Positions 25,943-57,363 of a stretch of 64,000 bases of DNA are shown here, in pieces (within the stretch, counting starts at the first letter, position 1; each line of letters begins with the position of its first letter). The notes beneath the pieces are model-generated. The model was not told the origin of the DNA. It was given only the letters and a program-made list of their open reading frames with translations, and did no database searches. The translations under genes and the position numbers were made by a program. Where the stretch lies: assembly GCA_963665665.1 (NCBI GenBank), contig OY762428.1:3616001-3680000 (forward strand), written 5' to 3'. The stretch is from Candidatus Kapaibacterium sp. GTDB taxonomy: Bacteria > Bacteroidota > Ignavibacteria > Kapaibacteriales > UBA2268.

Positions 25943-26009
25943 ATAATTGGTCTGTTTTTTGATTATATGTATTTTTGTATTAACTATATTTCAGAATAAA
26001 GCAATTGTA

Positions 26010-26939: not shown

Positions 26940-29900
26940 ATGAGAACTCTGCTACGACATGAAATAGATAGTAAAAAAATTCTAATATTTTTAATTGCTT
27001 TTATAGTTTTTGCTTCACCAGCCTTGGCCCAAACAGAGAATGTAGGGATAGGGACAACCTCACCTGATAATTCTGCGCTTCTTGATGTGGATGTATCATC
27101 AATGGCAACGAAAAGGGGTTTTTTAATTCCCAGGATGACAACTGCGGAAAGAAATTCAATAACCAGCCCGGCTACGGGCCTTGTTGTTTACAATACTGAT
27201 AATGGAAGATTTGAATATAATAACAATACTCCGGCAGCGCCAAACTGGGTTGGGCTGATCTCATCCGAAGCTACTGTGCCTTTTAACCTGATAACAGCTG
27301 GTACTAATTCCGGCCAGGCTTTATTGATTGGTGACGGTTCAACATTGGGGCCTACAGGAACCGGTACTATTACAGCAAATATTTTCACGGGTACAGGTTC
27401 TACATCTGATATGGTTGATCTTGCCACAGGCGAGGTTTCCGGTGTTTTGCCGATTGCAAATGGTGGAACTAATTCATCAGCAGCACTTATCAATGATCAG
27501 TTAATGATCTCATCCGGCGGAGCTATTGTTGAAGCCGGTGCGATGACTGACGGACAACTTGTAATTGGTTCTTCTGGTGCTGCTCCTGTTGTTACGACTT
27601 TAACCGAAGGGGCAAATATATCAATAACTAATGCTCCGGGTTCAATCACAATTGCTTCAGATTTACCGGCTTTAAATTCTGCTGAAATATGGATAGGTGA
27701 TGCCTCAAGCCAGGCTGTATCCCAGTCGATTGGCGGAGATGCCGGCCTTGCTCTTGATGGTACATTAACACTTGCCACTACGGCAGTATCGCCCGGGACT
27801 TATGGTAACGCCACGCAGGTGGCCACTTTCACGGTTGATACGAAAGGACGTTTAACAGCTGCAGGCAATCAGGATATCAGCGGTGTATCACCGGTTGGAA
27901 GTGCCTTGAACCAGACCCAGGTATGGATAGGCGATGCATCAAACCAGGCTGCGGCTCAAACTATTGGTGGCGATGCCACTATTGCTGCAAACGGGGACCT
28001 GACACTGGCTACTACGGCAGTATCTGCCGGGTCTTATGGTAACGCCACGCAGGTGGCCACTTTCACGGTTGATACGAAGGGACGTTTAACAGCTGCAGGC
28101 AATCAGGATATCAGCGGTGTATCACCGGTTGGAAGTGCCTTGAACCAGACCCAGGTATGGATTGGTGATGCATCTAACCAGGCAGCGGCTCAAACTATTG
28201 GTGGCGATGCCACTATTGCTGCAAACGGGGACCTGACACTGGCTACCACGTCAGTATCTGCCGGGACTTATGGTAACGCCACGCAGGTGGCCACTTTCAC
28301 GGTTGATACGAAGGGACGTTTAACAGCTGCAGGCAATCAGGATATCAGTGGTGTATCACCGGTTGGAAGTGCCTTGAACCAGGCCCAGGTATGGATAGGT
28401 GATGCATCTAACCAGGCAGCGGCTCAAACAATTGGTGGTGATGCCACTATTGCTGCAAACGGGGATTTAACTCTTGAACCTTCAGGAGTTACTGCTGCTA
28501 TTTATGGTGATGGCCTTAGTGTTCCGCAATTAACTGTAAATGCAAAAGGCCTTTTAACTTCAGTTACAAATACAACTATAACTTCAAATTCATCAACAAG
28601 CGCGGGTATAGTTGCATCCGGAGCCGGTCAGGCTAATCAGATATGGAAAACTGATGCAACAGGAAATCCTGCATGGAGGGATGATGCAACGGGTATTACA
28701 AGTATAACAGCAGGTACAGGCCTTGACGGCGGTACTATAACTACTACAGGAACGATTGACCTGGCTAATACTACTGTAACACCAGGTTCTTATGGCAGCG
28801 CAACTGAAGTAGCAACTTTTACTGTTGATGCACAGGGCAGGCTGACTGCTGCTGCTAATACAACAATAAGCGGTGTTGCTCCGGGCGGAGCTGCCGGAGG
28901 TGACCTGAGTGGCTCTTATCCCAATCCGGATATTGCCGCTGGGGTTATTATAAATGCTGATATTAATAACAGTGCTGAAATAGATGTATCAAAATTGGCA
29001 GAGGGCGGGACTACCGGTGAGCTTATCCGTACAAACGGTACGGATGTAGAATGGTGGTCCCCCGATTTTCCGACTGGATCAGGAGCAGCAAACCAGGTAA
29101 CATACTGGAGCGGTGTCGGAACTATTACTTCATCAGCCAATTATACTTATGATGGATCTGATCTGGGGCTGACAGGTAATGCCGGAATCACTGGTGACCT
29201 TGACGTAACCGGAACAATTGGTATTATAAACGGAACCGGCGGCGAAAATACTTTTACAACAATTGCCGGGCAGAGTGCTGTGATTAATTACAATCTGCCT
29301 TCAGCCTTACCGGTTTCCACGGGATTTCTTCAATCAAATTCAACAGGACAGTTATCCTGGGTTGATTTTACTTTTCCGACCGGAACAGAAGGACAGACAG
29401 TAAGGTTCGACAATGCCGGACAAATGGAAGCAAGCAGCGCAATTTATAATGACGGATCAAATATCGGTATGGGGCTGACTTCGGCAATAGGTTCCAGGCT
29501 TGTTGTGAAAGGAAGCGGTAATACCATTGCCACAAGCGCTTTGAATGTTACTAATAATGCAGACAATTCTTTGCTTTTCGTTCGGGATGACGGAAAAGTT
29601 GGAATTGGCAATAATACTCCTGGGGCTTTGCTTGATGTTGACGGAAGCGCAATATTCAATGAGAGCGGTACGGACGTAGATTTTCGTGTGGAATCTGATA
29701 ATCTTACTCACATGTTTTTTGTTGATGGTGAAGGAGACCAGATCGGGATAGGTACATCAAACCCTACTTCAACAGTTACTCTTGATATAATTGGTAATAC
29801 AAGAATTGAAGGTGACCTGGAAGTTACCGGCGAGATTGACCCTGTATCAGTTATTTACCAGCCTCAGGCCACAGCGCCGGCTGCATTAAAAGGAAAACTT

Positions 29901-31166
29901 TATTATGATAATTCAAGTGATGAACTCAGGGTATATACCGGTTCATCCTGGGAATCTGTAAGTACAGGCAGTGGCGGTGGTAGTACGGTATGGAGTGAGA
30001 ATGGTTCTGATATATATTATAATTCCGGTAATGTCGGGATTGGTATAAATCCACCCACAGCAACTTTAGATGTTGACGGAAGCGCAATATTCAATGAGAG
30101 CGGTACGGACGTAGATTTTCGTGTGGAATCTGATAATCTTACTCACATGTTTTTTGTTGATGGTGAAGGAGACCAGATCGGGATAGGTACATCAAACCCT
30201 ACTTCAACAGTTACTCTTGATATAATTGGTAATACAAGAATTGAAGGTGACCTGGAAGTAACCGGCGAGATTGATCCTGTTTCAATAACATTACAACCAC
30301 AGGCAGTTGCTCCAACAGGAGTAGAAGGGAAAGTTTATTACGATGCTACCAGCAGTGAATTGAAAGTTCATACAGGGTCTTCTTATGAGACTATTGCTAC
30401 CGGCTCAGGCGGCGGCGGTGGTGTGGGTGGAAGCGGAATAGCAAATCAGATTGCTTTCTGGTCTGACGGATCGACTATAACGTCAGAAAATGGTTCCGCA
30501 GGTTCTATGTACTGGGATGATACCAACAAGAGACTGGGAATCGGCAGAACTTCAACAACTAATACTCTTGAAGTATCGGATAATATCGGTATTTGGGGTA
30601 CAACGCCAACATTGAATTTAAACACGGATGCCAATAATTATTATAAAATAACTTTAGAATCAGGCGATCTTAATATTGATCAGGAAATACCCTCCGGAAA
30701 CACGGGTGGTAGTATTAATTTCAGGGATGATGCTGATAATATTGTTGCCGAAGTTGACCTCGAAAATCAGAATGTTCATATCCCTAACGGTAAGCTTGCC
30801 GTGGGCCACGATTCACCTGATGTGACTCTGGATGTTGACGGCGGGTTGGTTCTCCGGTCTATGGAAGTTACAATCTCGTCGAGTCCTCAGACAATAACAG
30901 TAGGAGATAATTCTTTTATTGTATGTACTCCCACAAGTGGAAATATGACGATTGTTTTAGGTGATGGAGTAAGGGTTGGTCAGATTTTATATCTAACTTC
31001 TACTACCACGAGTGTTAATATAACTACTGGTTCAAACGTAAAGAGAGTTTTAGATCCTAATAATGGAAATCCACTATCCTTTGTCTTAGATGCTAATGAT
31101 ATTTTACATTTGATTTGGAATGGTAACGACTGGCTTGAAGTTTCAAGGTCAAAAAATGAAAATTAA
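26940..31166 (+). CDS. Large secreted fibre-like (phage tail-fibre-like, probably trimeric) adhesin
   Basis: Signal peptide ending ALA-Q; N-terminal VGIGTTSP..ALLDV...GFLIPRMT domain; GTYG..TVDxKGRLT repeats; VGIG repeats; C-terminal L.WNG..W.EVSR domain; no T9SS CTD. Confidence 0.8.
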   Translation: MRTLLRHEIDSKKILIFLIAFIVFASPALAQTENVGIGTTSPDNSALLDVDVSSMATKRGFLIPRMTTAERNSITSPATGLVVYNTDNGRFEYNNNTPAAPNWVGLISSEATVPFNLITAGTNSGQALLIGDGSTLGPTGTGTITANIFTGTGSTSDMVDLATGEVSGVLPIANGGTNSSAALINDQLMISSGGAIVEAGAMTDGQLVIGSSGAAPVVTTLTEGANISITNAPGSITIASDLPALNSAEIWIGDASSQAVSQSIGGDAGLALDGTLTLATTAVSPGTYGNATQVATFTVDTKGRLTAAGNQDISGVSPVGSALNQTQVWIGDASNQAAAQTIGGDATIAANGDLTLATTAVSAGSYGNATQVATFTVDTKGRLTAAGNQDISGVSPVGSALNQTQVWIGDASNQAAAQTIGGDATIAANGDLTLATTSVSAGTYGNATQVATFTVDTKGRLTAAGNQDISGVSPVGSALNQAQVWIGDASNQAAAQTIGGDATIAANGDLTLEPSGVTAAIYGDGLSVPQLTVNAKGLLTSVTNTTITSNSSTSAGIVASGAGQANQIWKTDATGNPAWRDDATGITSITAGTGLDGGTITTTGTIDLANTTVTPGSYGSATEVATFTVDAQGRLTAAANTTISGVAPGGAAGGDLSGSYPNPDIAAGVIINADINNSAEIDVSKLAEGGTTGELIRTNGTDVEWWSPDFPTGSGAANQVTYWSGVGTITSSANYTYDGSDLGLTGNAGITGDLDVTGTIGIINGTGGENTFTTIAGQSAVINYNLPSALPVSTGFLQSNSTGQLSWVDFTFPTGTEGQTVRFDNAGQMEASSAIYNDGSNIGMGLTSAIGSRLVVKGSGNTIATSALNVTNNADNSLLFVRDDGKVGIGNNTPGALLDVDGSAIFNESGTDVDFRVESDNLTHMFFVDGEGDQIGIGTSNPTSTVTLDIIGNTRIEGDLEVTGEIDPVSVIYQPQATAPAALKGKLYYDNSSDELRVYTGSSWESVSTGSGGGSTVWSENGSDIYYNSGNVGIGINPPTATLDVDGSAIFNESGTDVDFRVESDNLTHMFFVDGEGDQIGIGTSNPTSTVTLDIIGNTRIEGDLEVTGEIDPVSITLQPQAVAPTGVEGKVYYDATSSELKVHTGSSYETIATGSGGGGGVGGSGIANQIAFWSDGSTITSENGSAGSMYWDDTNKRLGIGRTSTTNTLEVSDNIGIWGTTPTLNLNTDANNYYKITLESGDLNIDQEIPSGNTGGSINFRDDADNIVAEVDLENQNVHIPNGKLAVGHDSPDVTLDVDGGLVLRSMEVTISSSPQTITVGDNSFIVCTPTSGNMTIVLGDGVRVGQILYLTSTTTSVNITTGSNVKRVLDPNNGNPLSFVLDANDILHLIWNGNDWLEVSRSKNEN
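27670..28480 (+). repeat. ~3.5 near-identical 234-bp (78-aa) intragenic tandem repeats
   Basis: tatggtaacgccacgcaggt recurs at 27801, 28035 and 28269. Confidence 0.95.
29634..30279 (+). repeat. Intragenic ~210-bp near-identical duplication (29634-29844 and 30069-30279)
   Basis: DVDGSAIFNESGTDVDFRVESDN...GEIDPV occurs twice, offset by 435 bp. Confidence 0.95.
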
Positions 31167-31169
31167 AAT

Positions 31170-34100
31170 ATGAAAATAGTAAACAGATATACAAAATTAT
31201 ATATAATTCTTTCTGCTCTAATCCTACTTTTTACTGTTAAGTCGGAAGGGCAGATAATAACTTTAAGCCCAAATGCAACAGTATCTTTAAAAGACGGATC
31301 TGTTTTGCAGGTAAACGGCGGGTTGGAAATATCTTCTTCTGCCGGTCTAAGCCAGACCGGAAGCGGTAACATATATATCAGCGGTGACTGGACTAATAAC
31401 GGTGGTACTTTTACACCCGGCTCGGGAACCGTTACATTTCTGGGGAGCTCCAATGCTTCGATAAACGGAACTTCTCTTACGGAATTTTATTTTCTTCATA
31501 TTTTGAAAAACGGTGTTGCCGGCAGTGATATTCTAACTCTTATTCAGAATATTCAGGTTAATGATGATTTATTAGGTGAAGATGGTATTTTCAGAATTAA
31601 TAACGGGGCCGTCAGGAGTATTGAAATTTTCGGCGACCTGATTATCAATTCTGACGGAACTTTCGATCTTGCTTCAACAGGTTCTGCAACTCATAATCTT
31701 GATTTGCACGGAGATGTTAATAATTCAGGTATAATTGACTTGTTAGGTTCATCATCTGTAATAACTTCTTTTGTTGGTGTCGGTAATGCTGATGTATTCG
31801 GTAGCGGTCCAACTACTGAATTTTCAAGGATAACTCTTTCAAAAACAAACCCATCTGATATTGTTCATATCTATCCGGATAATTTCAATACTCAGGATCA
31901 GTTTCTGGTTCTGAATACAGGTGTTCTCAGATTTGGCGGAACATACAGCCTTACCAAATCATTTTTCTATTCTTATGCAAGTACTCCGCAAATACCTTCG
32001 AATGTAGATCTTTGGATTGATAATCCAAATGTGACAGTAACAGGGCAGAGCGGAGACCTGGAAATTCAGGGAGGATTAAGGCTTAGTAATGGTACTGTTA
32101 ATGTAGGCCTTGCATCTGAAACTGCAGGAGGGCTGATATATTCCAATGGAACAGGTACTCCTTCACTAACTGTTGAGAACGGTTATCTGAATATCAACTC
32201 TGAGTTAGCTAAATCAGCTGTGGCTTCGACTATCGATTTTAACCAGTCCGGCGGTGAAATAAATATTGGTGTTCGTGGATACCTGAATACCACTCATGGT
32301 ATGTTTGATATCAGTTCGGTCGGATCGGAATTTATCTGGACCGGCGGTATTATTGAGTTAAACAGGACTAACCGCAGCGTTACTTTTACAGACGGTGATT
32401 ATATTGTTGGTGCTTCAAGCGGAACCGTAACAGGTGGTACATTGAGGATTGATGCACAGGAATCCGGAAACAGGGTATACGAAATTAACACTACCCAGCC
32501 TGTCAATGAAATTTTTATGACCGGAACAAATGACCCTGTCGCACAGATAATTAATACCGACCTTACAATTCTTGATGACCTGACTATTGATGGTTCAGGT
32601 GCTGGAAGATTTGATGCAAATGATTATAATATTAATATCGGCGGTGACTGGTTTAATAATGCCAGTACATCATTTACTGCATTTGCTGCCGGCAGCGGAA
32701 CAGTTACATTCGACGGCTCGGCTGATCAGCTAATAGGCGGGACAAGGTCAACAACTTACAATCATGTTACCGTAAATAAGTCTGCCGGTGATGTTATTCT
32801 ATCCAATACCGACAGGGAAACTTTTATTGAAGGAACTTTGAAACTTGATCCCGGTAGCAGCGGCCTTGCTGTTATTGATTTGAACCAACGCGATCTGATA
32901 ATGGGAGAAAGTGCTTCTTATGTTTCGAATTCAGGCACAAGTGTATTTAACTTTGATACTACAAAATATATTAAAAATTCTGAAAGTGGCGGAAATTATA
33001 ATGGGCGTCTGATAAAACAAACAACTTCAGGAATAACTGCTCGAACAGAAATGATGTTTCCCGTTGGTACAGATACTGTTTATTCACCTGCTGAGATTGT
33101 TTACCTTGCAGGGCAGGCAACTTTCGGAGCTGATGCTTATACTGCTTGTAAAGTGATTCCGATTGAGCATCCCCGGGTTGAGGAACCTGATATTTCCTTG
33201 ATGAGATACTGGCAGATGGCCACGAATGATATTACGCTTGATTCAGATCTTGACGGTGATGTAGATGTAATTTTTCATTATGTAGGTACTGATGTTGCAG
33301 GTAACGAAGGTGAATACAGGGTATTGTTCTTCTCGCCAAGTTATCCTGATCCGCTTGGATTCTGGACTGTGGATCCGGGCGGTATAGGTAATGATATTGT
33401 TGACTTTAATAACAGGATGTTTTATTCTCTTGCCGTTAAAAAGGTAGATGGTGACTGGCTTTGTGGCGAGGAAGATGCTGCCCAGGCTACATATTTTAGT
33501 CGTCAGAACGGTGATTACAATGATCCTGATACATGGTCAAAAATTACTTTTGGCGGAGCTGCTTCTTCAACTGCCCCGAATAAAGCATCGGACAGGGTTT
33601 TGATTGCTGATAATGATACGGTTACTGTTACTGCTAATCCTGCAGAAGTAGATGTTTGTGCCGTGATGGAAGACGGTACATTAAAAATTGCCGGTGATTA
33701 TGTCTTTACGGGAGATACACTAAGGGTAGATGCTAACGGAAGCCTGATAATCGGAAACTCTGATGGTGTTTATCTTTCACCGACTGCACAGGGTTGTGTG
33801 CAGACTGATTTCAGGATATTTAATTCGAATGTTATTTATACATTTATAGATGCTCCTGTGACAAAGTCCGGAACCGGTAATGCTCTGCCAACCCAGTTGC
33901 GTTCCATTGTTGTGGATAAATCTTCCGGCGATACACTTTTGCTTGAGAAACAGTTTGCCATTACCGATTCACTTGTGTTGATAGACGGAGCACTGGATGT
34001 TGGTTCATATTCCATCAACGGCAACAGTGCCGGAAGAACATTTTCAATGTATGACGGTGAACTAATCATAAGGAATCAGTATCCTACAAACTATCTGGAT

Positions 34101-40100: not shown

Positions 40101-43070
40101 GAGACTTTTTATATTAATAATGACCTGATAATTGATAATATTAATACCTTTGAAACAAGAGGTAATACAATCGACCTGTCCGGAGACCTGTTAAATTCCG
40201 GTGTTTTCGATGCAATCAATTCTGCCGATGCAACAAGCCCCAGAATGCTTATACTTAGCGGTTCAAGCAATACTCAGACCCTATATAATGCTCAGGCAGG
40301 CGGCCTTGAGCTTTATAACCTCAGGGTAGATAAATTGGGGGGAGACGTTCTTCTTGGCCAGGCTCCCGGTGATAATTCTAATCTGCTAATAAGGAATATT
40401 CTTGAATTTACGAATGATAACTATTCTGTAATTGATTCAAGAACAAACGGGCTTTACGTGGAAATGGAACCCGATGCGGGTTCGGTTCCCCAGATAATCA
40501 GAAACGGACTGGGGCATATTTCCGGCAGGCTGTACAGGTATGTTGATACTGATGAACAAAGTGTTGCCTTTGCTGTTGGATCATCAACGGTAACCGAGTA
40601 CAGGCCTGTAGAATTTGAAACTGTTGGAAGCGGTGGAACAGCAGGTTTGGTGGGTGTTATAATGCATGATTTTGATCACCCGCGCCTTGGCGATGCTCTT
40701 GCCAAAACTGATAATAATATTCAGGTGTACTGGAATATTTCCGAAGGAACAGGCTTTGATCTTGATACAAGAACCTTTGATTTAAAAACTTATTTCCTGA
40801 ACCCGGAAGATATTCGCGGCGCTCAGTCTGATACACTGTTCTTCGGACATTTCCTTTACGAACCGCCATGCCCTGACCCTCCGGCAGTATGTCCGGGTGG
40901 CGGAACCTGGCATGAATTAATTTCAATTGATAAGGGGGCAAACTATGTGCGTTCCACTATCAATGACACATTCGGCGATGTAATGATAGCTGAAGCTGAC
41001 GGTGTAACATTTTACAGCATTAATGATGGTAACTGGAATAATGCAGCCAATTGGTCAACAGTCGGGTATGAAAGTGCTTCCAATCCTTACGGACGTTACC
41101 CCGGAGAGGCCGGTAATACAAGTGATAAGGCAAGGGTTGGTAACGATAAAAAGATTACAGTTCCTGTAGGTATACTTCCGAATGTAAGGACGTTGATTGT
41201 AGAAATGTATAACTCACAACCCGGAAAATTATATATTGAAGGTAATGTCGGGGCTGTAAGGGGAATATCCTTTGCTCTCAGGGACAGTTGTACTCTTGGC
41301 ATTATGCATCTGAACGGTATTGCTCAGAACGGGGTTACAGGTGGCGCCATTCTTATGGATACTCGTGAATATGGTGTTAGTAACTATGTATTTAATTCTA
41401 CTTTTGGTTCCCAGAACTCCGGTAAAGGCCTGCCCGATTCTGTTGCGGCAATAATTGTTGATAATCCGTCAGCGCCGACTAATAATGTTTTTGTTACAGC
41501 TTTCAATGCAGGTTATGACATTCGTGTAAGGGATTCGCTTTCCGTTTTGCAGGGAACTCTTAACTGTGGTAACAGGGACTTCCATCTTTATGGTGATTTC
41601 TCAATATTTGGAAACGGACTTTTTGAGCCTTTGGCTTCGAGTTTCGAGTTCAGCGGCCCCAACTCACATACAATCACTCTTGGGAATAACCAGGGCCTTT
41701 CTTTCTGGAATTGCAATGTCCGCTCGGATGCTGATGTTATTGTTGATCCTGTAACCGGATATGACACAACAACAGCACATATATATATGGAAAACAATCT
41801 GACATTCTCAGGTGATAATATATTTTACGTTCGCGATCAGTGGCGCAAGATTATTATGAGCAACACAGCAAATGTTGTTCAGTCAGTTGCCGATCAGGGC
41901 TATGTTGACGGTACTCTTCTGAAATATCTTGGCCCTAATGCTCTCACAGAATTTTTTGAGATAGGTAACGGAACGGCTTATACGCCTGTTCTTCTTACAC
42001 TCGATAATACCAGCGGAAATGGCACTGCCGGGCAGGTAGAAGCAATAAATATTGCACCCCTGCCTAATGACCCGTCCAATTACCCGGCTGTCGGGCACAG
42101 GATGGATACCGGGCGTTCCATTCCGCGCTACTGGCGCGTGATGCCGACTCCCGGTGGTTCATTTGCTATTGGTGGCCGTACAGCAAATGCACGCCTTCAC
42201 TTCCCCAATTCCGAACTTGGAATTATAAGTGTTCCGAATGCCGTTATCAGGCGGAGGTCGATTCCCACCGAGACGCCTGAATGGCATCAGCGCTCATATA
42301 CAACGCAGATAAACTGGGATGTTGTCAGCCCGACTTCCTGGGCGGAACTTCTTCCGGCAACACCGCCATGGGAAGGTATCGGCGAATTTTATATCGGCGA
42401 GAAATTTGACAGGACATTCTATAGTATAGCGGATGGTGTCTGGGCTGATAATAATACCTGGTCATTGGAATCTCATGACGGTATAGCGCCTCCTCCTGGT
42501 GTATATCCCAACCATGATGAAAACGAACAGGCTGATAACGTTGAAATAGGACTTACAAGCGCTTCCTATACTCACGTGGTTACTCTGGATGTTGACTCTC
42601 CTGATATTGATACGCTCAGGGTGCTTGGCAATTCTGAATTATATATGGATGCCAATACGATTAATTGTTACGATTGCCTGGCACTTAGCAAAGGACTTTT
42701 CCGATTCAGGGATAACGCCACGCTCAGCATTGGTGGTACGAACAATCCTAATGAACTTGTTTTGAAAAATTTCACTGCTTACGACTGGACGGATGCTGAG
42801 GGCAGCAACACAACAATAAAATTTACCGGTACAAATACAATTACTCAAAACCCTTTCGGTAATGCCACGGATATAGGGTATTTCGGCCATGTGGAAGTGG
42901 CCGAGCCGGGCGAGAAAGTTATTAACCAGGCTTTGCGTATTCAGGGGAACCTGCTGATAACAACCGGAGCAACTTTGAATGTTCAAAATATTGATGCATT
43001 GAAGGTAAATCGAAACGTTATCAACTCTGCCAGTTTGAATAATAACGGGGTGATCGAAATAGGCGAATAG
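31170..43070 (+). CDS. Giant (3966 aa) secreted beta-helix/Ig-like repeat protein with an inserted GEVED domain
   Basis: Signal peptide ending SEG-Q; six FYS..GxW..xW modules and six RYW-type beta-sandwich modules; WKIYVDWNYDGDFSD...GEVEDY; ends NNNGVIEIGE; no T9SS CTD. Confidence 0.85.
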   Translation: MKIVNRYTKLYIILSALILLFTVKSEGQIITLSPNATVSLKDGSVLQVNGGLEISSSAGLSQTGSGNIYISGDWTNNGGTFTPGSGTVTFLGSSNASINGTSLTEFYFLHILKNGVAGSDILTLIQNIQVNDDLLGEDGIFRINNGAVRSIEIFGDLIINSDGTFDLASTGSATHNLDLHGDVNNSGIIDLLGSSSVITSFVGVGNADVFGSGPTTEFSRITLSKTNPSDIVHIYPDNFNTQDQFLVLNTGVLRFGGTYSLTKSFFYSYASTPQIPSNVDLWIDNPNVTVTGQSGDLEIQGGLRLSNGTVNVGLASETAGGLIYSNGTGTPSLTVENGYLNINSELAKSAVASTIDFNQSGGEINIGVRGYLNTTHGMFDISSVGSEFIWTGGIIELNRTNRSVTFTDGDYIVGASSGTVTGGTLRIDAQESGNRVYEINTTQPVNEIFMTGTNDPVAQIINTDLTILDDLTIDGSGAGRFDANDYNINIGGDWFNNASTSFTAFAAGSGTVTFDGSADQLIGGTRSTTYNHVTVNKSAGDVILSNTDRETFIEGTLKLDPGSSGLAVIDLNQRDLIMGESASYVSNSGTSVFNFDTTKYIKNSESGGNYNGRLIKQTTSGITARTEMMFPVGTDTVYSPAEIVYLAGQATFGADAYTACKVIPIEHPRVEEPDISLMRYWQMATNDITLDSDLDGDVDVIFHYVGTDVAGNEGEYRVLFFSPSYPDPLGFWTVDPGGIGNDIVDFNNRMFYSLAVKKVDGDWLCGEEDAAQATYFSRQNGDYNDPDTWSKITFGGAASSTAPNKASDRVLIADNDTVTVTANPAEVDVCAVMEDGTLKIAGDYVFTGDTLRVDANGSLIIGNSDGVYLSPTAQGCVQTDFRIFNSNVIYTFIDAPVTKSGTGNALPTQLRSIVVDKSSGDTLLLEKQFAITDSLVLIDGALDVGSYSINGNSAGRTFSMYDGELIIRNQYPTNYLDNTFTAGRITFDGTGNATIPSSGSTPGVDQYYDLKISGQRDSTVITFQSAGQINIINDFDISTIVFTGGLSERFQTDGSTVNFAKSGGVQDIQCRPASPPDSIVNLEYFNLLITGTGTKQLYTAAGTPTFVVRNDLTLSSSTFSSNGYNLEVNGDWVNTGSLFDPGTDGVIMRSPVFSLTNTISSRDTSENPFYNLLIGGEGIVEPNDDLYVMNDFAIEANSNFSLSTTTFTLEGDWTNYGGSFSSASFSTVHFNGSSTQNMTKSDAGNEEFWDVFISNPNHVDATGIGTSSDNGFVINNYIELDGGNLITRGRHATSYGAIGRPGANPGHIDGELRKIMDTATTSEIFEVGYGSQYTPARLSFNGSGGSSGLVGVASDTITTATSPISWDNLNPDNILPAGSEMSLDKHVARQWTLSNPGGIFAIGSNRNYDFTGYFINPGDFRNGADPDYFELRLWNGSVWTAPDRFANPLTGTRNSDNSTYRMLEEFGTIILGEPDKYSFYSIYDANWGVNTSWSTQSYGGPASDIPPNTDCKVYIGDSKVITMEANKTNNGIVTIDTSGTLLCETYVLSGGVGSEFILGREGALGIGSADGIRASGAFGNIQTDSRDFNENTHNRGHFIYTSGLNQTQADEALPITIATLRVNKTSNTVTNNRSAIIITDSLHLENGTYEAGANISLLGNFYREDGSTFDPSTNSFTVEGTSGQFFTNSSTSLTIDFYNLQIEKEAGEGILTLNDNTPIKIENNLLFAPANESIIDGQGHSWNYVELPNGATLTRAGSGHIFGELRKYIPAGNTSDIDFEVGDTTFFTPLRFNFDDTGGTAGLIGVNSIQGAHPNMTDTDCPIDPARYIPRYWRTTRPGGSGFAVGTRSYTLRSTFIDPDDLGTIDHPTCTETGYWRGTTESWQALRPNTTNGNFAYACSDTRFILGDIDYDGSMTTNLANDIPSDSTLGSTYTFADGSLLLADYVVGNQNSGRTTIFYSRQDGDWTDPNTWSEDSYIGTASSRYPITQYDVAYIGNNRYVDLDANLGTNYLYSGVSNDYFGPAINVENTGELYLHNHVIRGVGFTAKKGSKVVIGSRDGITLSNTRGNIMSLTRTFEDSINVVYTAEGYTPRCKYGDQTGRNTQYYDVRDWYADSRYTERVTMQDASSDTIMDNQSGSDFRTRGYFYFADITATVTSGSQYRFFLEPDDNGSRRWKIYVDWNYDGDFSDSNEEWYDSYGSGTRNTGLLTVPASTNPGVTRIRVMNRYGSSDYNWYSRSLTGEVEDYTLVIINNTPAITQVTGDNLPDDLWSFEARAVRTAGGTIELGNDLRIRDSLLLTSGVFTVNGHDISLQGDFINDSTNNFIHDSQTITFYGSDNDTIRGTNPTDFYNIVIDKDSADVVLTHSTPDTDFYTTIENNLTFDSDTDFYLSNSSTITLLSSSNLNAGSGSFGRYRKFEVSGDTDAGIIEKQFTTAAGAKAFVFPVGIDTLYNPADLTLTGSYSGTPTINLQLHYGLHPARLDDNMLLKYWTVDLEDISSITANDFKFYWEDLDTNGVKDDYIPALHYSGGWEINLGIGPKALPSPIEITNSPLFEGDWTAGDANGFFNGRPFYSINTGDWDVPSNWSNISHVGPPSSYYPNQLYDHDSVYVDGYTITFNVDSSLVDLVDVGGTFGTNGELTFGSSPTEKKLTSSSTFTVYEDGILNGTTGSNRIDTLVLHGDFYNYAQSASSGIVELYSGANDYTVLKFDSPDSVSASGNTYIGGEGVWGDIGSYILDKNGGLADTLIVNSGTFADATVASPGDLVYYPEQGVLKLNVNNTLSVSNGNNPVQMSPFTGFDVAAGVVSSSSTLTTDVNTTIHVDGGDFLVGDAAGESLIYKTGTHFELIDGTLDIAGAFKKFNTNSLIDFSMTSVGAVRVLNQGVLSSSEIGFDITNASSSFSMDGGRIIIANGTVGANADFEVNAQNGTGMLGGEIQSGDGTTPGAAIIKIAGSMPVWDLHAVGNASTDVVTQITEETFYINNDLIIDNINTFETRGNTIDLSGDLLNSGVFDAINSADATSPRMLILSGSSNTQTLYNAQAGGLELYNLRVDKLGGDVLLGQAPGDNSNLLIRNILEFTNDNYSVIDSRTNGLYVEMEPDAGSVPQIIRNGLGHISGRLYRYVDTDEQSVAFAVGSSTVTEYRPVEFETVGSGGTAGLVGVIMHDFDHPRLGDALAKTDNNIQVYWNISEGTGFDLDTRTFDLKTYFLNPEDIRGAQSDTLFFGHFLYEPPCPDPPAVCPGGGTWHELISIDKGANYVRSTINDTFGDVMIAEADGVTFYSINDGNWNNAANWSTVGYESASNPYGRYPGEAGNTSDKARVGNDKKITVPVGILPNVRTLIVEMYNSQPGKLYIEGNVGAVRGISFALRDSCTLGIMHLNGIAQNGVTGGAILMDTREYGVSNYVFNSTFGSQNSGKGLPDSVAAIIVDNPSAPTNNVFVTAFNAGYDIRVRDSLSVLQGTLNCGNRDFHLYGDFSIFGNGLFEPLASSFEFSGPNSHTITLGNNQGLSFWNCNVRSDADVIVDPVTGYDTTTAHIYMENNLTFSGDNIFYVRDQWRKIIMSNTANVVQSVADQGYVDGTLLKYLGPNALTEFFEIGNGTAYTPVLLTLDNTSGNGTAGQVEAINIAPLPNDPSNYPAVGHRMDTGRSIPRYWRVMPTPGGSFAIGGRTANARLHFPNSELGIISVPNAVIRRRSIPTETPEWHQRSYTTQINWDVVSPTSWAELLPATPPWEGIGEFYIGEKFDRTFYSIADGVWADNNTWSLESHDGIAPPPGVYPNHDENEQADNVEIGLTSASYTHVVTLDVDSPDIDTLRVLGNSELYMDANTINCYDCLALSKGLFRFRDNATLSIGGTNNPNELVLKNFTAYDWTDAEGSNTTIKFTGTNTITQNPFGNATDIGYFGHVEVAEPGEKVINQALRIQGNLLITTGATLNVQNIDALKVNRNVINSASLNNNGVIEIGE

Positions 43071-43214
43071 CCTAACTTTATAGTATTAGTAGGAATATGA
43101 AAAAGAATTAATTGATAATTAGGTAGTATTACTGAAAAAGAATATAATAATATTGTCGTCTATTAATGTGAAGGAGTAGAAAATTTTTGATAAATTAAAA
43201 AGTTTTAATAAATT

Positions 43215-43259
43215 TAAGTAGTTATACTTATTGATGCTCAGGTTGCAATTGTGTAACTT
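43215..43259 (+). promoter_or_regulatory. Putative activator-dependent promoter: palindrome TAAGTA-N4-TACTTA abutting TTGATG-17-TAACTT
   Basis: Matches 26837-26881. A second, weaker box TAGGTA-N4-TACTGA lies at 43120-43135. Confidence 0.7.
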
Positions 43260-43340
43260 GCAGGGCAAACTGAAAGAAGCTATTGAAAAAATAAGTATTT
43301 ATAATAAATAAATAAAATTACTCATCTACGGAGGTTTATA

Positions 43341-45938: not shown

Positions 45939-45954
45939 ATCCAATTTGTTTTAT

Positions 45955-46023
45955 TCAGGAGGAGGTTCTCCTCCTCCTGATATTATTAAATTTTAAAAAA
46001 GGAAAACGAGTTGTTTTCCTTTT
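45955..46023 (+). terminator. Intergenic hairpins (terminator or mRNA-stabilising)
   Basis: tcaggaggagg-ttct-cctcctcctga (45955-45980) and aaggaaaac...gttttcctt (~45999-46021). Confidence 0.7.
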
Positions 46024-46093
46024 ACTCGGAAAAGTAAACATGTAGGTTAATAAACATTAATGATAATATCATTTAGAGTAAATATAAAATAAC

Positions 46094-48169
46094 ATGAAAT
46101 ACACGAGAAACATACTACTAATTAGTCTTATTCTAATCATTTCCGCATCTGCTGTTGATAGTCAGGTATTGCTTAGAAATGATAAGAAAAATGCTAAGAT
46201 AGTTAATAACGGTACTTTCCGTGTATTGAAAACAGGTTCGATCGTAGGTATGCCCGATACAATTGGTGGAAGGGTAGAATTCATTAGTGATGAAAGAACA
46301 ATGACTCAGGCAGTTCCGAATTCGACTTACAATCAGTTACTAATAACAGGTTCAACGAAAAAATATATTGATTCAGCATGGAATCATAAAACCTTCAACC
46401 CGCTTCGCACCAGGGATTCTCTGATAGTTGATGGCGAAACGGAATTTAATCTTGATTCTGTTGAAGTACATGCACAGGGGCCAATTGCAAATGAAGCCAG
46501 AATCAAGGGACGGAATGACCTTAGAGCAATAAATGAAGTTAATTCTCAGACGATTCAGGGAAAGGGGCTTATCAGAAGGCTTAATATCGATAATCCCCAG
46601 GGCGTTGATGTAGTTAAAGGTGGTGGCTTTAAAATAACCGGGAAATTAGAACTTACCCGCGGGGAGCTTCGCAATGACGCTGATAATAATTTCCATATCG
46701 AGGATTCGGTAAGGATTATCCGCCATACGGGCGCTTCGCTTGCTAATGATCCTGAATTTGACGGCAGGGATATTGCCGTGGAATATGTTGGTGGCGGTTC
46801 TCTTAGTACAGGTCCGGAATTGCCAAATGATTCAACGTTACTTGCCAGCCTGTATAACAAGACATCAGGCGGTGTTTACCTGACTAAATCCGTAACTGTT
46901 AATGATTCGCTGCTTCTTGTTTCCGACATTACTACAAGCCCGAACAGTACTACTTTTAATGATGATATTGTACTTACATATACAAATGACAAATCTCCGA
47001 TATTTACTAATCATGAAGCGGAGATCATCGGTGCTTTCCGAAGAACTAAGATCAGTTTCGACAGCACAAGGGTAATCTTCAATAATCCATATACCTGGGC
47101 TCTCTTTCTAAAGCCGGAGGATGCGAATGGTTCATCTGATATTACATTTCGCGTAAAACCAAAAACATTCCCTCCGTTTTATAAAGGCGAACTTAAGGTG
47201 CGCAGGAGTTTTGAAATCCGTGCCATGGATAGTAACTATGCCAGCATTGAAGAAGGCATAAACATGAAGGTTGGTTACGGCTGGCGTGTTTCAAAAGATA
47301 CGGCTAAGGACGAAAATCACGGGATGCCCTTGCCTGAATTACTATTCCAGCGATGGACAGGCTCGGATTGGTTTGATTACGATAATTCTAAAAAACCGAT
47401 TCTTGATACTCTTCCGGAATGGGCTTATGCCTCGGCCGATATTTCACAATATGGTGATTTTGCAATCGGTTTGCCGGGTGGAATTCAGTTGACACTTGAT
47501 TCCAGAGTTTTGCTTGAAGGGCCTTATCGATATGGATCAATGGCACAGGACCTGAGATTAAAAAATCTTGTTCCTAAAACTCCACCGGATATCTATCCAT
47601 ATAATCTGGATCCTAACCGAAATCTGATTTTCGTGAATCAAATTCCTGATTCCGTTGTTGATTGGATAGTTATGGAATTCAGGCCTTCCTTTACATCAAC
47701 CGACAGGTTCTATCGTACTGCTTTCCTTAGGTTTGACGGCCGGGTAGTTGACCTTGACGGTATATCCCCGGTACTGCTGTCTAAGGGCGGAATTGACTCG
47801 GGTGAGTACTATGTGGCTATTCACCACAGGAATCACCTTGCAGTAATAACTGAAAAGAAAGTTGGCATATATCCTGAAACTGTTCAGAGGGTACTTGATT
47901 TCACCAATCCAAATATACTTATGGGGCGTTTTAGTGCTCTTAAGCCGATCGATGTTACAGAAGAAGGCCGGGCGATATTCGGTATGATAGGCGGTGATAT
48001 AAATGGTGACGGTATTGTTGATGAAAATGATATGATAGGTGTTTGGAGCGATCGGGATTATGAAGGCCAATATCTTAATACCGATACCCGGATGAACGGT
48101 ATTATTCATACCCGGGATTTCAACGTGAGCTGGAACAACCGGGGCCGGGTCAGCAATCTTCCTAAATAA
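46094..48169 (+). CDS. Secreted beta-helix/Ig-like protein with C-terminal LEGPY domain and dockerin-like double Ca-binding loop
   Basis: VLLEGPY, HRNHL, GGDINGDGIVDEND...DTRMNGIIHTRD; the N-terminal half resembles the 865-aa protein. Confidence 0.8.
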   Translation: MKYTRNILLISLILIISASAVDSQVLLRNDKKNAKIVNNGTFRVLKTGSIVGMPDTIGGRVEFISDERTMTQAVPNSTYNQLLITGSTKKYIDSAWNHKTFNPLRTRDSLIVDGETEFNLDSVEVHAQGPIANEARIKGRNDLRAINEVNSQTIQGKGLIRRLNIDNPQGVDVVKGGGFKITGKLELTRGELRNDADNNFHIEDSVRIIRHTGASLANDPEFDGRDIAVEYVGGGSLSTGPELPNDSTLLASLYNKTSGGVYLTKSVTVNDSLLLVSDITTSPNSTTFNDDIVLTYTNDKSPIFTNHEAEIIGAFRRTKISFDSTRVIFNNPYTWALFLKPEDANGSSDITFRVKPKTFPPFYKGELKVRRSFEIRAMDSNYASIEEGINMKVGYGWRVSKDTAKDENHGMPLPELLFQRWTGSDWFDYDNSKKPILDTLPEWAYASADISQYGDFAIGLPGGIQLTLDSRVLLEGPYRYGSMAQDLRLKNLVPKTPPDIYPYNLDPNRNLIFVNQIPDSVVDWIVMEFRPSFTSTDRFYRTAFLRFDGRVVDLDGISPVLLSKGGIDSGEYYVAIHHRNHLAVITEKKVGIYPETVQRVLDFTNPNILMGRFSALKPIDVTEEGRAIFGMIGGDINGDGIVDENDMIGVWSDRDYEGQYLNTDTRMNGIIHTRDFNVSWNNRGRVSNLPK

Positions 48170-48213
48170 ACTCTGATTGAATCCCGGTAAAGGATAAACT
48201 TGAAAAAATAAAT

Positions 48214-49548
48214 ATGAAAAAATATTCATACATACTGGTTTTTATTTTTCTCCTCTGTTCTTCAATAGTGTATTCACAGAACAGGGAGATTCTTGGTATT
48301 GTACAGATCGATGAAGTTAACCTGGTGCAGCCTGATACACTGGAATTTGATATTCTTCTGAAAAGAACATCAGACCGATGGGACAGATGGGCTAACGGCA
48401 CATTCCAATTGGAATTTACTGATACAAACTTCAAGCTGGGCCCTTCTGATATGCAGATTGAATACATTTTTAACAGTTCCGATCTGCCGACTCCGCCACT
48501 ATCAGGTGGTGTACTTCCTGTTGATAGTTATATTATAACACCAAGGATTTTAACTGACAGAATCAGTATTACAATAGCCGGACCGGAACTGTATCCTGAT
48601 GCATCTTATGTTCCCATGGATGATAATGGAATAAAGATCGGCACATTCAGAATTTTTTCCAATTTGGGCCAGAAATTATCTGAGTCACTTGGATGGAAAA
48701 TGCCATCGGATTATTACCAGGCATGTGCATATAAACTGAAAAATGATACTATCAGGCCGATAAATATTCCCTGGGCATTTGAAAATGATAATATCGAAAT
48801 GGATAACCTGCGCTCAACCGGCGTTACTTATGAAAGGATTGATACTATTCCACCGCAGATGGTTCTGAAGTATTTTCATGGTGAATATGTCGGCCTTCGA
48901 AAAGTAAGGTTGTGGTGGGAAACTGAAAGAGAGGCTTACAACAAGGGTTTTGTTCTTACCCGTGGAATTAAGCCGCCTTTCGGAGATGACGATGATACTC
49001 AGTTCAATACTCTGATAGCCAGGTTTGACGATGGAATACAGTGGCACAGGGATTCACTTACCGGGCTTGGAACCAAACGCTATGGCCGTGAATATATTTA
49101 TCCTTTCGATACCGTACCATACAGGGGTGAGGAATATTGCTACCTGCTTCAGTATATTGATTTCAATGATTCACTCAGGCATATTCCTTATACTGACGAG
49201 TATGGTGTATATCATGAAAAAGCTATCAGGTGCATACCTATTCCCAATGCTGTTATTTCTGCTGCAGAAGCCCAGCCAAATCCTTTCCGTGAACAAACCA
49301 CCGTGAAATATCTTTTGGATGATAATGTTTTACTGACTGTATCGGTATTCGACCTTCTTGGCAAGGAAGTCAAGAGGCTTATTGATAAGCAGGAGGTTGA
49401 ACTTGGTTGGCATGAGGTTATTTTTAATGCTCCAGTCGAGGAACTAGCCTCGCAGGGCCTTTACCAGATTGTTTTTATTGCTAATCCTATTGACGATCCG
49501 AACGTGGAAATTTCAAAAGCTATCGTTAAAGTGCAGTTGATAAGATAA
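48214..49548 (+). CDS. T9SS type A sorted protein with N-terminal cohesin-like beta-sandwich
   Basis: LEFDILL...ANGTFQLEF, IKIGTFRI; LWWETERE..NKGF Ig domain; QPNPF...VFDLLGKEV CTD. Confidence 0.7.
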   Translation: MKKYSYILVFIFLLCSSIVYSQNREILGIVQIDEVNLVQPDTLEFDILLKRTSDRWDRWANGTFQLEFTDTNFKLGPSDMQIEYIFNSSDLPTPPLSGGVLPVDSYIITPRILTDRISITIAGPELYPDASYVPMDDNGIKIGTFRIFSNLGQKLSESLGWKMPSDYYQACAYKLKNDTIRPINIPWAFENDNIEMDNLRSTGVTYERIDTIPPQMVLKYFHGEYVGLRKVRLWWETEREAYNKGFVLTRGIKPPFGDDDDTQFNTLIARFDDGIQWHRDSLTGLGTKRYGREYIYPFDTVPYRGEEYCYLLQYIDFNDSLRHIPYTDEYGVYHEKAIRCIPIPNAVISAAEAQPNPFREQTTVKYLLDDNVLLTVSVFDLLGKEVKRLIDKQEVELGWHEVIFNAPVEELASQGLYQIVFIANPIDDPNVEISKAIVKVQLIR

Positions 49549-53612: not shown

Positions 53613-53635
53613 TTATCTGACTCCTGAATTATATA

Positions 53636-57294: not shown

Positions 57295-57363
57295 ATTATT
57301 TCCCTTTATAAGAAAACCCAAAAATTTTTTTCCAGAACTATTCGTCGTTTGTAATCTTTTAAA

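Follow-up and report, generated by a model that had tools for sequence, protein, structure and literature searches.

A gene cluster of Candidatus Kapaibacterium sp. for a probable beta-helix fibre joined end to end, apparently a new kind of appendage

In the assembly of type V pili (FimA/Mfa1), the C-terminal strand of one subunit completes the next; in curli and other stacked beta-solenoids, head-to-tail stacking of the units follows the helix axis; and the T4 long tail fibres (gp34-gp37) consist of different elongated proteins joined end to end in a fixed order and encoded by adjacent genes. Large beta-helix proteins commonly act alone. The window analyzed here, a stretch of 64,000 nucleotides from Candidatus Kapaibacterium sp., contains at positions 26940-49548 five co-oriented plus-strand genes for signal-peptide proteins of 1417, 3966, 865, 691, and 444 aa (P0001 to P0005), separated, in order, by 3, 270, 155, and 44 nt. 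A sequence-only reading of this DNA had described five co-oriented secreted-protein genes and proposed that they encode a surface filament; open reading frames, translations, and signal peptides bear out the gene set, and we find the locus to be real, mostly as proposed, and apparently a new kind of appendage. We consider it fairly probable that these genes specify a modular beta-helix fibre in which several polypeptides are linked end to end, with the 865-aa protein also joining to itself and the whole standing on a cohesin-like anchor. This reading is based on folds, conserved termini, synteny, natural fusions, and an interface predicted between P0003 and P0004. Searches of the literature turned up no account of such an end-docking fibre, and the assembly of an appendage from end-docking rods is apparently undescribed.

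The locus resembles type V pili in belonging to the same broad bacterial group and in forming an operon with candidate tip, shaft, and anchor-like parts. However, its subunits are beta-helices of 691-3966 aa rather than two-domain pilins, their SPI-type signal peptides leave a mature Gln and no lipobox cysteine (the first Cys in P0003 comes at residue 44), we see no sign of a proteolytic priming step, and the predicted joint continues a helix instead of filling a groove. No pilin was found among the matches listed for the P0003 model, in which the beta-helix dominates. With curli (CsgA/CsgB) the locus shares beta-solenoid units stacked head to tail, but the units here are large, folded, and multi-domain, have specialized, non-identical termini, and come from several proteins in a set order; by Pfam, neither a Curlin repeat nor csgEFG- or CsgG-type secretion genes occur in P0001-P0005 or the neighbouring genes. 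As for chaperone-usher pili, a Pfam scan of the six cluster proteins and 12 neighbours found no usher or periplasmic chaperone gene.

The proposed base recalls cellulosome anchoring: the N-terminal domain of P0005 matches cohesins from cohesin-dockerin complexes (Z 9.6), and P0004 ends in a duplicated calcium-loop segment, a putative dockerin. In contrast to the cellulosome, the anchor is T9SS cargo of a diderm and not an S-layer-homology or sortase-anchored scaffoldin, and its load is a predicted fibre, not enzymes. Phage long tail fibres are likewise built of several elongated proteins joined end to end and encoded by adjacent genes, but they are trimers, chaperone-dependent, and not Sec-exported. 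A Pfam scan of the neighbours revealed no phage genes flanking the locus, and none of its proteins has a PHROG match. Tapirins, Ag43, and TPS/autotransporter passengers are single chains with their own export domains, whereas the fibre proposed here would be divided among several genes whose products have matching ends and lack a translocator domain.

Table 1. Positions of the genes and features discussed in the text, numbered from the first nucleotide of the window
Feature	Position	Strand	Basis or remark
LuxR-type response regulator	25947..26669	+	Response_reg E 6.8e-30, GerE E 1.2e-20; directly upstream
P0001, 1417 aa from TTG 26913; secreted repetitive protein	26940..31166	+	ORF and translation
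P0002, 3966 aa, giant	31170..43070	+	ORF, translation, motifs
GEVED domain in module 4 of the giant (aa 2176-2249)	37695..37916	+	Pfam PF20009
P0002 tail, last ~27 aa, ends IEIGE	42987..43067	+	tail alignment, profile
P0003, 865 aa	43341..45938	+	ORF, AF2 model
P0003 head, mature aa 29-60, starts with Q, contains C44	43425..43520	+	alignment, profile
P0003 tail, aa 846-865, contains C860	45876..45935	+	predicted interface, conserved terminus
Terminator-like hairpin	45955..45980	+	17 nt past P0003 stop; 11 pairs, 7 G-C
P0004, 691 aa	46094..48169	+	ORF, alignment, hhalign
P0004 head, mature aa 24-46	46163..46231	+	predicted interface with P0003 tail
LEGPY domain (aa ~466-620) and dockerin-like double calcium-loop segment (aa ~625-691)	47489..48166	+	
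P0005, 444 aa	48214..49548	+	AF2 pLDDT 84.7, pTM 0.58
P0006, 641 aa, WD40 propeller and T9SS CTD	49610..51535	+	sixth co-oriented gene

P0003 comprises a signal peptide (residues 1-28), a beta-helix (about 30-480), an RK motif (486-492), a sandwich (about 488-680), a cap (680-697, with its motif at 680-694), and a partial helix to residue 865. Its AF2 model (pLDDT 88.5, pTM 0.83, 90-row alignment) predicts a right-handed parallel beta-helix followed by the sandwich and the capped partial helix. Residues 92-444 of the model match the beta-helix 7jvi_B with a VIA Z of 16.0 (rmsd 3.6 A, 270 aligned), which supports the proposal of a beta-helix shaft; 165 chains reach Z>=8, those listed being almost all beta-helix proteins, among them tapirins (4wa0_A, Z 15.3; 6n2c_B, Z 15.0), TPS domains (13.4-13.7), and Ag43b (12.9). 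Foldseek alone returned nothing for this model at E<=1e-3. The P0003 family has no relative in Pfam, NCBIfam, or PDB and is large (761 clusters at 50% identity in metagenomes, E<=1e-3), and thus marks an annotation blind spot in Ignavibacteria/Kapabacteria-type bacteria.

The giant P0002 contains, in order, a signal peptide, a capless first helix, about six modules of cap, beta-helix, RK motif, and sandwich, and a terminal cap with a partial helix. The cap motif (FYS..G.W.....W) occurs at about 775, 1485, 1958, 2573, 3281, and 3750, and the (I/V)xGxxR(R/K)-type motif at 1308, 1761, 3117, and 3579, with variants at 611 and 2427; the GEVED domain has an E value of 2.5e-13 (51.1 bits against a cut-off of 24.4). 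Related loci have homologues of P0002, 3583-4369 aa long, at the corresponding place. P0004 is composed of a signal peptide (1-23), a capless helix, an RK motif (311), a sandwich, a LEGPY stretch starting at residue 473, and a dockerin-like C-terminal module, and has no cysteine. In P0002, P0003, and P0004 every RK-type motif is followed by YW motifs; the cap motif is missing at the starts of all three and throughout P0004. The common module set claimed for these proteins is thus borne out by the motif positions, as are their capless starts, and also by profiles, though it is invisible to BLASTP, which found no pair of locus proteins under E 0.1. By hhalign, the 865 and 691 families match with a probability of 97.9% (E 5e-13, 202 columns), and the six giant segments match the 865 family at 65% (E 6e-5) and the 691 family at 86% (E 5e-6). 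Several longer relatives are flagged with a CTD of their own (PF18962). Examination by eye of six of them revealed a cap-like motif directly past the signal peptide in P0164, P0170, and P0180 and a variant cap in P0169, while P0158 has its N-terminus cut and P0174 gave no clear reading. Such capped starts in three of the six fit the interpretation of the capless heads of P0002-P0004 as open ends.

The translations confirm that the giant and P0003 both end in a cap and a partial helix with near-identical termini, NNNGVIEIGE* and GANSCAEVGE*, as quoted in the sequence-only reading. In the tail alignment, the seven giants and the 18 aligned members of the 865 family share one tail without exception, finishing 0-3 residues ahead of the stop; across 134 representatives of the 865 family, 113 have [IVL]G followed by 0-3 residues as their terminus. 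A profile of the 865 tail, built without the giant, gave two significant matches among the 4502 frames of at least 150 aa in the genome: P0003, itself in the profile (E 1.8e-8), and P0002 (E 1.6e-4), the next best having an E value of 0.31. At the other end, the 865 and 691 families start, directly past the signal peptide, with Q and an N.G.I-type strand. The 865-head profile without P0003, run against the same 4502 frames, ranked P0003 first (E 1.8e-5), P0004 second (E 1.2, not significant), and P0002 third (E 2.2), so that this profile links the 865 and 691 heads through rank only. Apart from the cap motif, nothing supported the idea that a tail piece and the next head rebuild an internal module of the giant.

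Natural 865-691 fusions were found among the best 150 matches in six cases (P0102, P0122, P0132, P0142, P0144, and P0153; 1451-1581 aa), in which the tail motif runs into the head motif with no hydrophobic signal peptide between them. The six look like one lineage and probably reflect one evolutionary event; P0150, a short piece ending in the tail motif and fused to an 865-type head, would be a second. These fusions bear on a different explanation of the tail, as a signal for sorting or secretion that an export machine recognizes, in the manner of a CTD, and not as a joint. Its extreme C-terminal position is that of sorting signals, and the proteins carry no known outer-membrane export signal. 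However, in the fusion proteins the motif is internal yet conserved, the head motif is conserved in step with the tail, the tail is predicted to pair with the head of the protein that follows, and the locus encodes no candidate machine; we regard a sorting function of the tail as very improbable.

Prediction of the complex between P0003 residues 480-865 and P0004 residues 24-310, a pairing for which such a model had been suggested, gave a score of 0.80 (runs 0.79, 0.80, and 0.80), and the best of three controls scored 0.00. Of solved complexes, 116 of 157 attain the mark used for this score, as do 2 of 215 mismatched pairs; these counts apply only roughly here because our own alignments were used. 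At least 95% of contacts agree between runs, and the partner pLDDT is at least 87. Since a PDB profile search found no similar structure, it is unlikely that the predictor merely reproduced a known one. The predicted interface includes all residues of 846-865 plus 805, 807, 810, 831, 838, and 843 on the P0003 side, and residues 24-29, 31, 33-46, and 59 on the P0004 side, in a parallel register that places 847 with 27, 855 with 38, and 862 with 44; from this register in the contact lists, the helix would continue across the joint.

Cysteines point to the same register. In ten of 134 members of the 865 family, the only cysteines left unpaired are one in the head and one in the tail (pattern HT in seven, HiiT in three). 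The position pairs 858/42, 860/44, and 864/48-49 (P0003 numbering, by eye) share one offset of about 816, which coincides with the predicted joint, as residue 860 touches the P0004 equivalents of P0003 residues 44-45. Four of the five strongest head-tail MI pairs lie on offsets 815-818, and the maximum of 0.173, compared with 0.110-0.120 in control regions, was reached in 4 of 200 shuffles; these covariation counts come from related, non-independent sequences. A head Cys alone proves nothing, since 33 members (pattern Hiii) have one that must pair inside the protein.

The conserved termini, fusions, predicted complex, and covariation together argue for the proposed docking of C-terminus onto N-terminus. 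They also bear on the possibility that these are independent secreted beta-helix adhesins or enzymes of one operon, whose conserved ends are ordinary helix termini without contact. The solitary action common among large beta-helix proteins and the lack of significant BLASTP similarity among the locus proteins would agree with independence. Against it stand a tail whose conservation in two families reaches to 0-3 residues from the stop, fusions that put tail and head in direct sequence, the complex score relative to controls, the co-varying head and tail cysteines, and the cap-like starts of three of the six CTD-bearing relatives, unlike those of P0002-P0004. We therefore find independent proteins improbable.

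A closer competitor is a fixed rod, in which a single copy each of the giant, the 865-aa protein, and the 691-aa protein docks on one anchor in the order of the genes and the 865-aa protein does not polymerize. All the docking evidence applies equally to such a rod, the fusions among the best 150 matches and 30 longer relatives are all 865-691 and never 865-865, and cysteine is entirely absent from 43 of 134 family members. However, P0003 and P0007 have exactly two cysteines each, one in the head and one in the tail, which meet in the predicted joint, and in this genome neither the tail of the giant nor the 691 head has any, so that in a 1:1:1 rod both P0003 cysteines would stay unpaired. The head-plus-tail pattern, moreover, recurs at several different position pairs. 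We consider the fixed rod unlikely and favour the fibre in which the 865-aa protein probably also joins to itself in this genome, an 865-865 joint possibly being locked by a Cys44-Cys860 disulfide; the shaft may then hold more than one copy. Only tentatively can a whole new filament class be suggested, in which the 865-aa protein polymerizes as a shaft by its open ends with the giant distal and the 691-aa protein at the base, the joints are locked by disulfides in some lineages, and a chain devoid of CTDs rides the T9SS on the single cohesin-like anchor that bears a CTD.

The dockerin-like nature of the base had been proposed previously and gains support from the P0004 family, where Dockerin_1 (PF00404) is the commonest Pfam match (5 of 10 members, best E 0.0065; none in P0004 itself). 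Two D.N.DG..D-type loops about 30 residues apart are conserved in the family alignment A2, as read directly; the P0004 profile matches the dockerin 5lxv_B in PDB at E 0.39, and Dockerin_1 is present in 15% of members of the neighbouring Atlas cluster. These observations weakly suggest that the C-terminal module of P0004 is dockerin-like. P0005 consists of a signal peptide, a cohesin-like domain (24-210), an Fn3-like domain (214-345), and a T9SS CTD (345-444), and fold matches of its model bear out the cohesin-like domain and CTD ascribed to the gene that follows P0004. The similarity of residues 24-210 to cohesins is moderate (Z 9.6-8.8; 10 cohesin entries among the 50 matches shown), the best being 5nrk_A, 4uyp_A, and 2vn5_A (Z 9.6, rmsd 3.3-3.5 A, 129-133 of 142-144 aligned; for 5nrk_A, 3.3 A and 130 of 143); Pfam has no cohesin family for P0005 at E<=0.1, and a profile search of PDB sequences found nothing relevant. 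Residues 345-444 match the PorU CTD (6za2_B 1055-1157; Z 9.8, rmsd 2.7 A, 92 aligned) and the PorZ CTD (5m11_A, Z 9.1), with TIGR04183 at 19.9 bits against a cut-off of 23 (E 5.3e-4) and PF18962 at 15.4 bits against 27. The genome has a T9SS and makes heavy use of it, as SprA (TIGR04189) scores 956.6 bits with a cut-off of 200, and at least 150 CTD matches exceed their cut-off. P0001-P0004 match neither Por_Secre_tail nor any other CTD model at E<=0.1 in Pfam and NCBIfam, and we identified no other export route for these four proteins, in which Pfam detects no translocator domain.

The cohesin-like domain on its own occurs in 14 of 151 genomes, in every case immediately behind a gene whose product ends with the LEGPY/dockerin-like module; two of these genomes, G068 and G182, belong to another family. 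This adjacency in 14 of 14 genomes suggests that the dockerin-like module of P0004 likely pairs with the cohesin-like domain of P0005. The LEGPY/dockerin-like domain is found in 46 of the 151 genomes of the class, on many large proteins, and therefore either the pair is not obligate or the partner has diverged.

Assembly of the fibre might proceed as follows. After Sec export and cleavage, which would leave Gln as the first residue, the giant and the 865-aa protein would each use their final ~20 residues as a tail that settles in parallel strands on the uncapped head of whichever protein follows (865 or 691 aa), and the helix would thereby run on from one chain into the next. The chain order would be giant, 865, 691, the same as the gene order. 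The dockerin-like end of the 691-aa base would be held by the cohesin-like domain of the 444-aa protein, whose T9SS sorting domain would fix the fibre to the cell surface, where it may act in adhesion. If confirmed, such joining would be a new principle of surface-fibre assembly in bacteria beside the few now listed, namely donor-strand exchange, type IV assembly, sortase linkage, and amyloid stacking. It would also point to a way for proteins that lack a sorting domain to exploit the T9SS, and the short matching ends might offer a natural means of linking proteins in a defined order.

Synteny in related genomes, proposed as a check, was observed: the order giant-865-691-444 or 865-691-444 is kept in the related loci fetched, and the full-length 444-type gene, present in 12 of 151 genomes, adjoins a 691-type gene in 12 of 12. 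Judged by this synteny, P0001 is a candidate distal fibre or tip bound to the giant. Its signal peptide comes from the ATG at 26940, and its gene carries a tandem array at 27768-28465 (period 234 nt, 3.0 copies, 96% matches). No family of Pfam, NCBIfam, or PHROG matches P0001 above threshold. Proteins encoded at the corresponding place in related loci share conserved N-terminal and C-terminal parts with it, the tails of its relatives vary, and ESM Atlas offers, as a lead only, a PTL_trimer cluster (0.91) and phage fibre families (0.84-0.89). The hairpin after P0003 is a pattern match only, with nine such sites in 9.1 kb compared with 6.5 +/- 2.7 in shuffles. Directly upstream of the cluster, the LuxR-type response regulator is a possible regulator of the locus. 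At the opposite end, P0006 matches Pfam WD40 (E 1.6e-24) and TIGR04183 (25.5 bits, cut-off 23), and its homologues are located 3' of the 444-type gene in loci L012/L021, L016, L017, L018, L020, and L024.

Six genes of the complete 5.46-Mb source genome, all in the same orientation, are flanked on one side by a LuxR-type response regulator and on the other by an [FeFe]-hydrogenase cluster that runs the opposite way. Each of their products, P0001 to P0006, has an N-terminal basic-hydrophobic leader and then Gln, as read from the translations (a Gln rule has been described for Bacteroidetes signal peptidase I substrates; PMC5837995). Little is recognized in them by Pfam and NCBIfam besides a GEVED domain inside the giant protein P0002, a below-threshold T9SS C-terminal sorting domain (CTD) in P0005, and WD40 repeats with an above-threshold sorting domain in P0006; the same models detected no sorting domain in P0001-P0004. 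The sole PHROGs match is a weak one of P0001 (E 0.0057).

Features of the surface-protein locus and its neighbourhood (positions in the window)
Feature	Position	Strand	Remarks
LuxR-type response regulator	25947-26669	+	receiver and GerE; directly upstream of P0001
P0001	26913/26940-31166	+	1417 aa
Tandem array in P0001	27768-28465		234-nt units (78 aa), 3.0 copies, 96% matches
P0002 (giant)	31170-43070	+	3966 aa
P0003	43341-45938	+	865 aa
Terminator-like hairpin	45955-45980		11 pairs, 7 G-C; 17 nt past P0003 stop; pattern match only
P0004	46094-48169	+	691 aa
LEGPY/dockerin-like module of P0004	47489-48166		
P0005	48214-49548	+	444 aa
P0006	49610-51535	+	641 aa
[FeFe]-hydrogenase cluster	51843-57321	-	large subunit, NuoF-like/pyridine-nucleotide oxidoreductase and thioredoxin-like ferredoxin genes
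PAS histidine kinase	59359-61959		
Second LuxR-type response regulator	62007-62636		

The sequence-only reading had assigned a common module set to the giant, 865-aa, and 691-aa proteins. The motifs it named, including the cap motif FYS..G.W.....W and the RK motif (I/V)xGxxR(R/K), were found in the translations where it had placed them, and the giant and 865-aa termini are as it quoted them. The module set itself is invisible to BLASTP, which gave no pair below E 0.1 among the six proteins, and was recovered by profile-profile comparison (hhalign). The 865 and 691 families align with a probability of 97.9% (E 5e-13) across the helix end, the RK motif, and the sandwich, and for an alignment of six giant segments the probability is 65% (E 6e-5) with the 865 family and 86% (E 5e-6) with the 691 family.

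The AlphaFold2 model of P0003, obtained from a 90-row alignment, is confident (pLDDT 88.5, pTM 0.83) and shows a long series of short strands over residues 30 to about 480, then a sandwich (488-680), the cap motif (686-694), and further short strands up to the C-terminus. Its region 92-444 matches a right-handed beta-helix (7jvi_B, Z 16.0, rmsd 3.6 A, 270 residues aligned), followed by tapirins (Z 15.0-15.3) and by TPS domains, Ag43, and tailspikes (Z 12-14); a Foldseek search of the model against PDB gave nothing at E<=1e-3.

The C-terminus-on-N-terminus docking proposed earlier for the 865:691 pair is supported by complex prediction. We consider here the tail, i.e. the conserved last ~20 residues of the giant and 865 families (P0003 846-865), and the head, i.e. 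the mature N-terminus of the 865 and 691 proteins, which starts without the cap motif. Prediction for P0003 480-865 with P0004 24-310 scored 0.80 (0.79, 0.80, and 0.80 in three runs) against 0.00 for the best of three controls; the mark used for this score is reached by 116 of 157 solved complexes and by 2 of 215 mismatched pairs, counts that are only approximate here, since our own alignments served as input. At least 95% of contacts are common to the runs, and the partner has a pLDDT of at least 87. In the predicted interface, residues 846-865 of P0003 and six residues of the preceding rungs face the N-terminal 23 residues of mature P0004, and the numbers of paired residues increase in parallel, like those of stacked parallel strands. 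No PDB sequence matched the profiles of the 865, 691, and 444 families or P0001 itself below E 0.2. With no solved relative of the two partners found by sequence, it is unlikely that this prediction merely reproduces a known structure. It supports binding of the P0003 tail to the P0004 head, as far as modelling can speak to it.

The distribution of the two termini was analyzed at the level of families. The same C-terminal motif, 0-3 residues from the stop, ends all 25 aligned sequences of the giant and 865 families, and a simple pattern finds it in 113 of 134 representatives of the 865 family. The tail is an uncommon ending: in a set of 4502 frames from this genome, its profile retrieves P0003 (E 1.8e-8), the giant (E 1.6e-4), and no others, with E 0.31 for the best of the rest. 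The mature starts of the 865 and 691 families share a related Q...N.G.I strand; the link between these heads is weak, P0004 being second of the 4502 frames for the 865-head profile (E 1.2), and the head profile matched nothing at E<=0.01 in whole frames of the genome.

Of the 761 clusters that an exhaustive profile search for the 865 family returned at E<=1e-3 (216 of them at E<=1e-30), nearly all are of 700-870 aa and match through the last profile position. Six of the best 150 matches are about twice as long and consist of an 865-like protein continued directly by a 691-like one; at the junction the tail motif abuts the head motif, with no signal peptide in between. Judged by their mutual resemblance, the six probably derive from a single fusion event. 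A different fusion, P0150, has a 129-residue piece with the tail motif at its end, followed by an 865-type head. Fusions of two 865-type proteins were not seen among the best 150 family matches and the longer relatives.

A separate idea, that a tail piece and the next head together correspond to one internal module of the giant, was not supported: between post-cap segments of the giant and the 865 family, the alignment extends over no more than the 20 columns of the cap motif, with a probability of 31%. The tail profile found no internal tail copies in the giants, and a loose tail pattern retrieved the true tails and scattered internal sites, none of which, by eye, ends in IE[IV]G.

Most members of the 865 family have an even number of cysteines (0 in 43, 2 in 19, and 4 in 52 of 134), and in 10 of the 134 one head Cys and one tail Cys are the sole cysteines without an internal partner. 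Inspection of heads and tails by eye places such pairs at 858/42, 860/44, and 864/48-49 (P0003 numbering), all with a common offset of ~816, which is that of the predicted joint. Head-tail mutual information, calculated on the 96 of 134 sequences that could be anchored, peaks at 0.173 against 0.110-0.120 in control regions, a level reached by 4 of 200 shuffles, and offsets 815-818 hold four of the five best pairs; owing to the kinship of the sequences, neither these nor the cysteine figures can serve as probabilities.

The only cysteines of P0003 are C44 and C860. Residue 860 contacts, in the predicted joint, the P0004 residues equivalent to P0003 44-45, and the giant tail and the whole of P0004 have no Cys at the matching places. 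Therefore, a disulfide would be plausible only if it joined the tail of one P0003 molecule to the head of another; an intramolecular C44-C860 link seems unlikely in a protein modelled as an elongated helix-sandwich-helix. This cysteine arrangement gives indirect support to a shaft with more than one P0003 copy. Among the members whose tail Gly is replaced by Cys, P0088 lacks close relatives in 301 genomes of the phylum (only 5 matched at E<=1e-30, the best with 34% identity), and a metagenome scan gave no confirmed locus of such members.

The hairpin downstream of P0003 would fit higher expression of this gene, and together with a 270-nt gap on its 5' side forms a layout that would allow expression both separate and higher. 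In two related loci (L022 and L023), the giant and 865-type tails are both extended by a Cys-containing dipeptide (G.C[QE]), so that the two tails change together within a genome. In six family members of the iiiT pattern, a tail Cys of this type is accompanied by three internal cysteines.

The P0005 model (pLDDT 84.7, pTM 0.58) has three sandwich domains. Residues 24-210 resemble cohesins (10 cohesin entries among the 50 matches listed; best Z 9.6; 129-133 of 142-144 residues aligned), 214-345 resemble Fn3 domains, and 345-444 the sorting domains of PorU (Z 9.8) and PorZ (Z 9.1); Foldseek retrieved only generic Fn3 chains and PorU. Among 151 sampled genomes of the class, 12 have a full-length relative, all from the taxonomic order of this genome, and in every case it adjoins a 691-type gene. 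When only the cohesin-like domain is considered, the number rises to 14 of the 151; in the two extra cases (G068 and G182, of another family), too, it immediately follows a gene with a C-terminal LEGPY/dockerin-like module. This module, for which Pfam has no model, is present in 46 of the 151 genomes, in many large proteins (open frames up to 5289 aa), and seems to be a widespread module of surface proteins that lacks annotation. The P0004 C-terminus is dockerin-like, judging by two conserved calcium-loop motifs, weak Dockerin_1 matches in 5 of 10 relatives, and an Atlas neighbour cluster. Three paralogues of ~1850-1880 aa share the Fn3-like and CTD end of P0005 (source contig G000:C1, 1329767-1330384, 3049062-3049679, and 3684458-3685075), one of them ~4.5 kb past the window end.

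Nine related loci were fetched with P0004, from Ignavibacteria, Kapabacteria, and Bacteroidota MAGs, two being labelled otherwise. In one family, the locus comprises a P0001-like gene followed by the giant, 865, 691, and 444 genes, often with the WD40 gene next; loci of a second family have no giant and two to five short P0001-like genes 5' of the 865-type gene. In one genome, a 691-type gene immediately follows that of a 3583-aa P0001-like protein. This variation defines 865/691/444 as the core, and the order proposed earlier is kept in it. The P0001-like proteins look like candidates for exchangeable distal parts, but their tails vary, and there may be several kinds of docking tail. In giant-less loci (L013/L014, L025-L027), their termini are of the W.E[VL][SG]R..N type, one is IEVG plus five residues, faintly like the IE[IV]G tail, and others end in DF[YF]ITVI[KQ]. 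P0001 itself contains, besides the tandem array, another ~145-aa segment occurring twice; the high similarity of its repeats suggests that this candidate distal protein has recently expanded or varied in length.

SprA is encoded in the source genome, along with at least 150 proteins that have a sorting domain. A sorting domain is also flagged in several of the longer relatives of the helix module, and a cap-like motif was seen by eye right after the signal peptide in three of six CTD-bearing relatives inspected; thus, the module family is carried elsewhere on T9SS cargo, and the capless starts observed here are unusual. The CTD-less P0001-P0004 might be exported by riding on P0005. We know of no precedent for export of CTD-less proteins on a CTD-bearing partner. 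Full-text literature searches listed no description of such a system.

Downstream of the six genes, the hydrogenase cluster looks like an electron-bifurcating one, and beyond it lie the PAS histidine kinase and the second LuxR-type response regulator.
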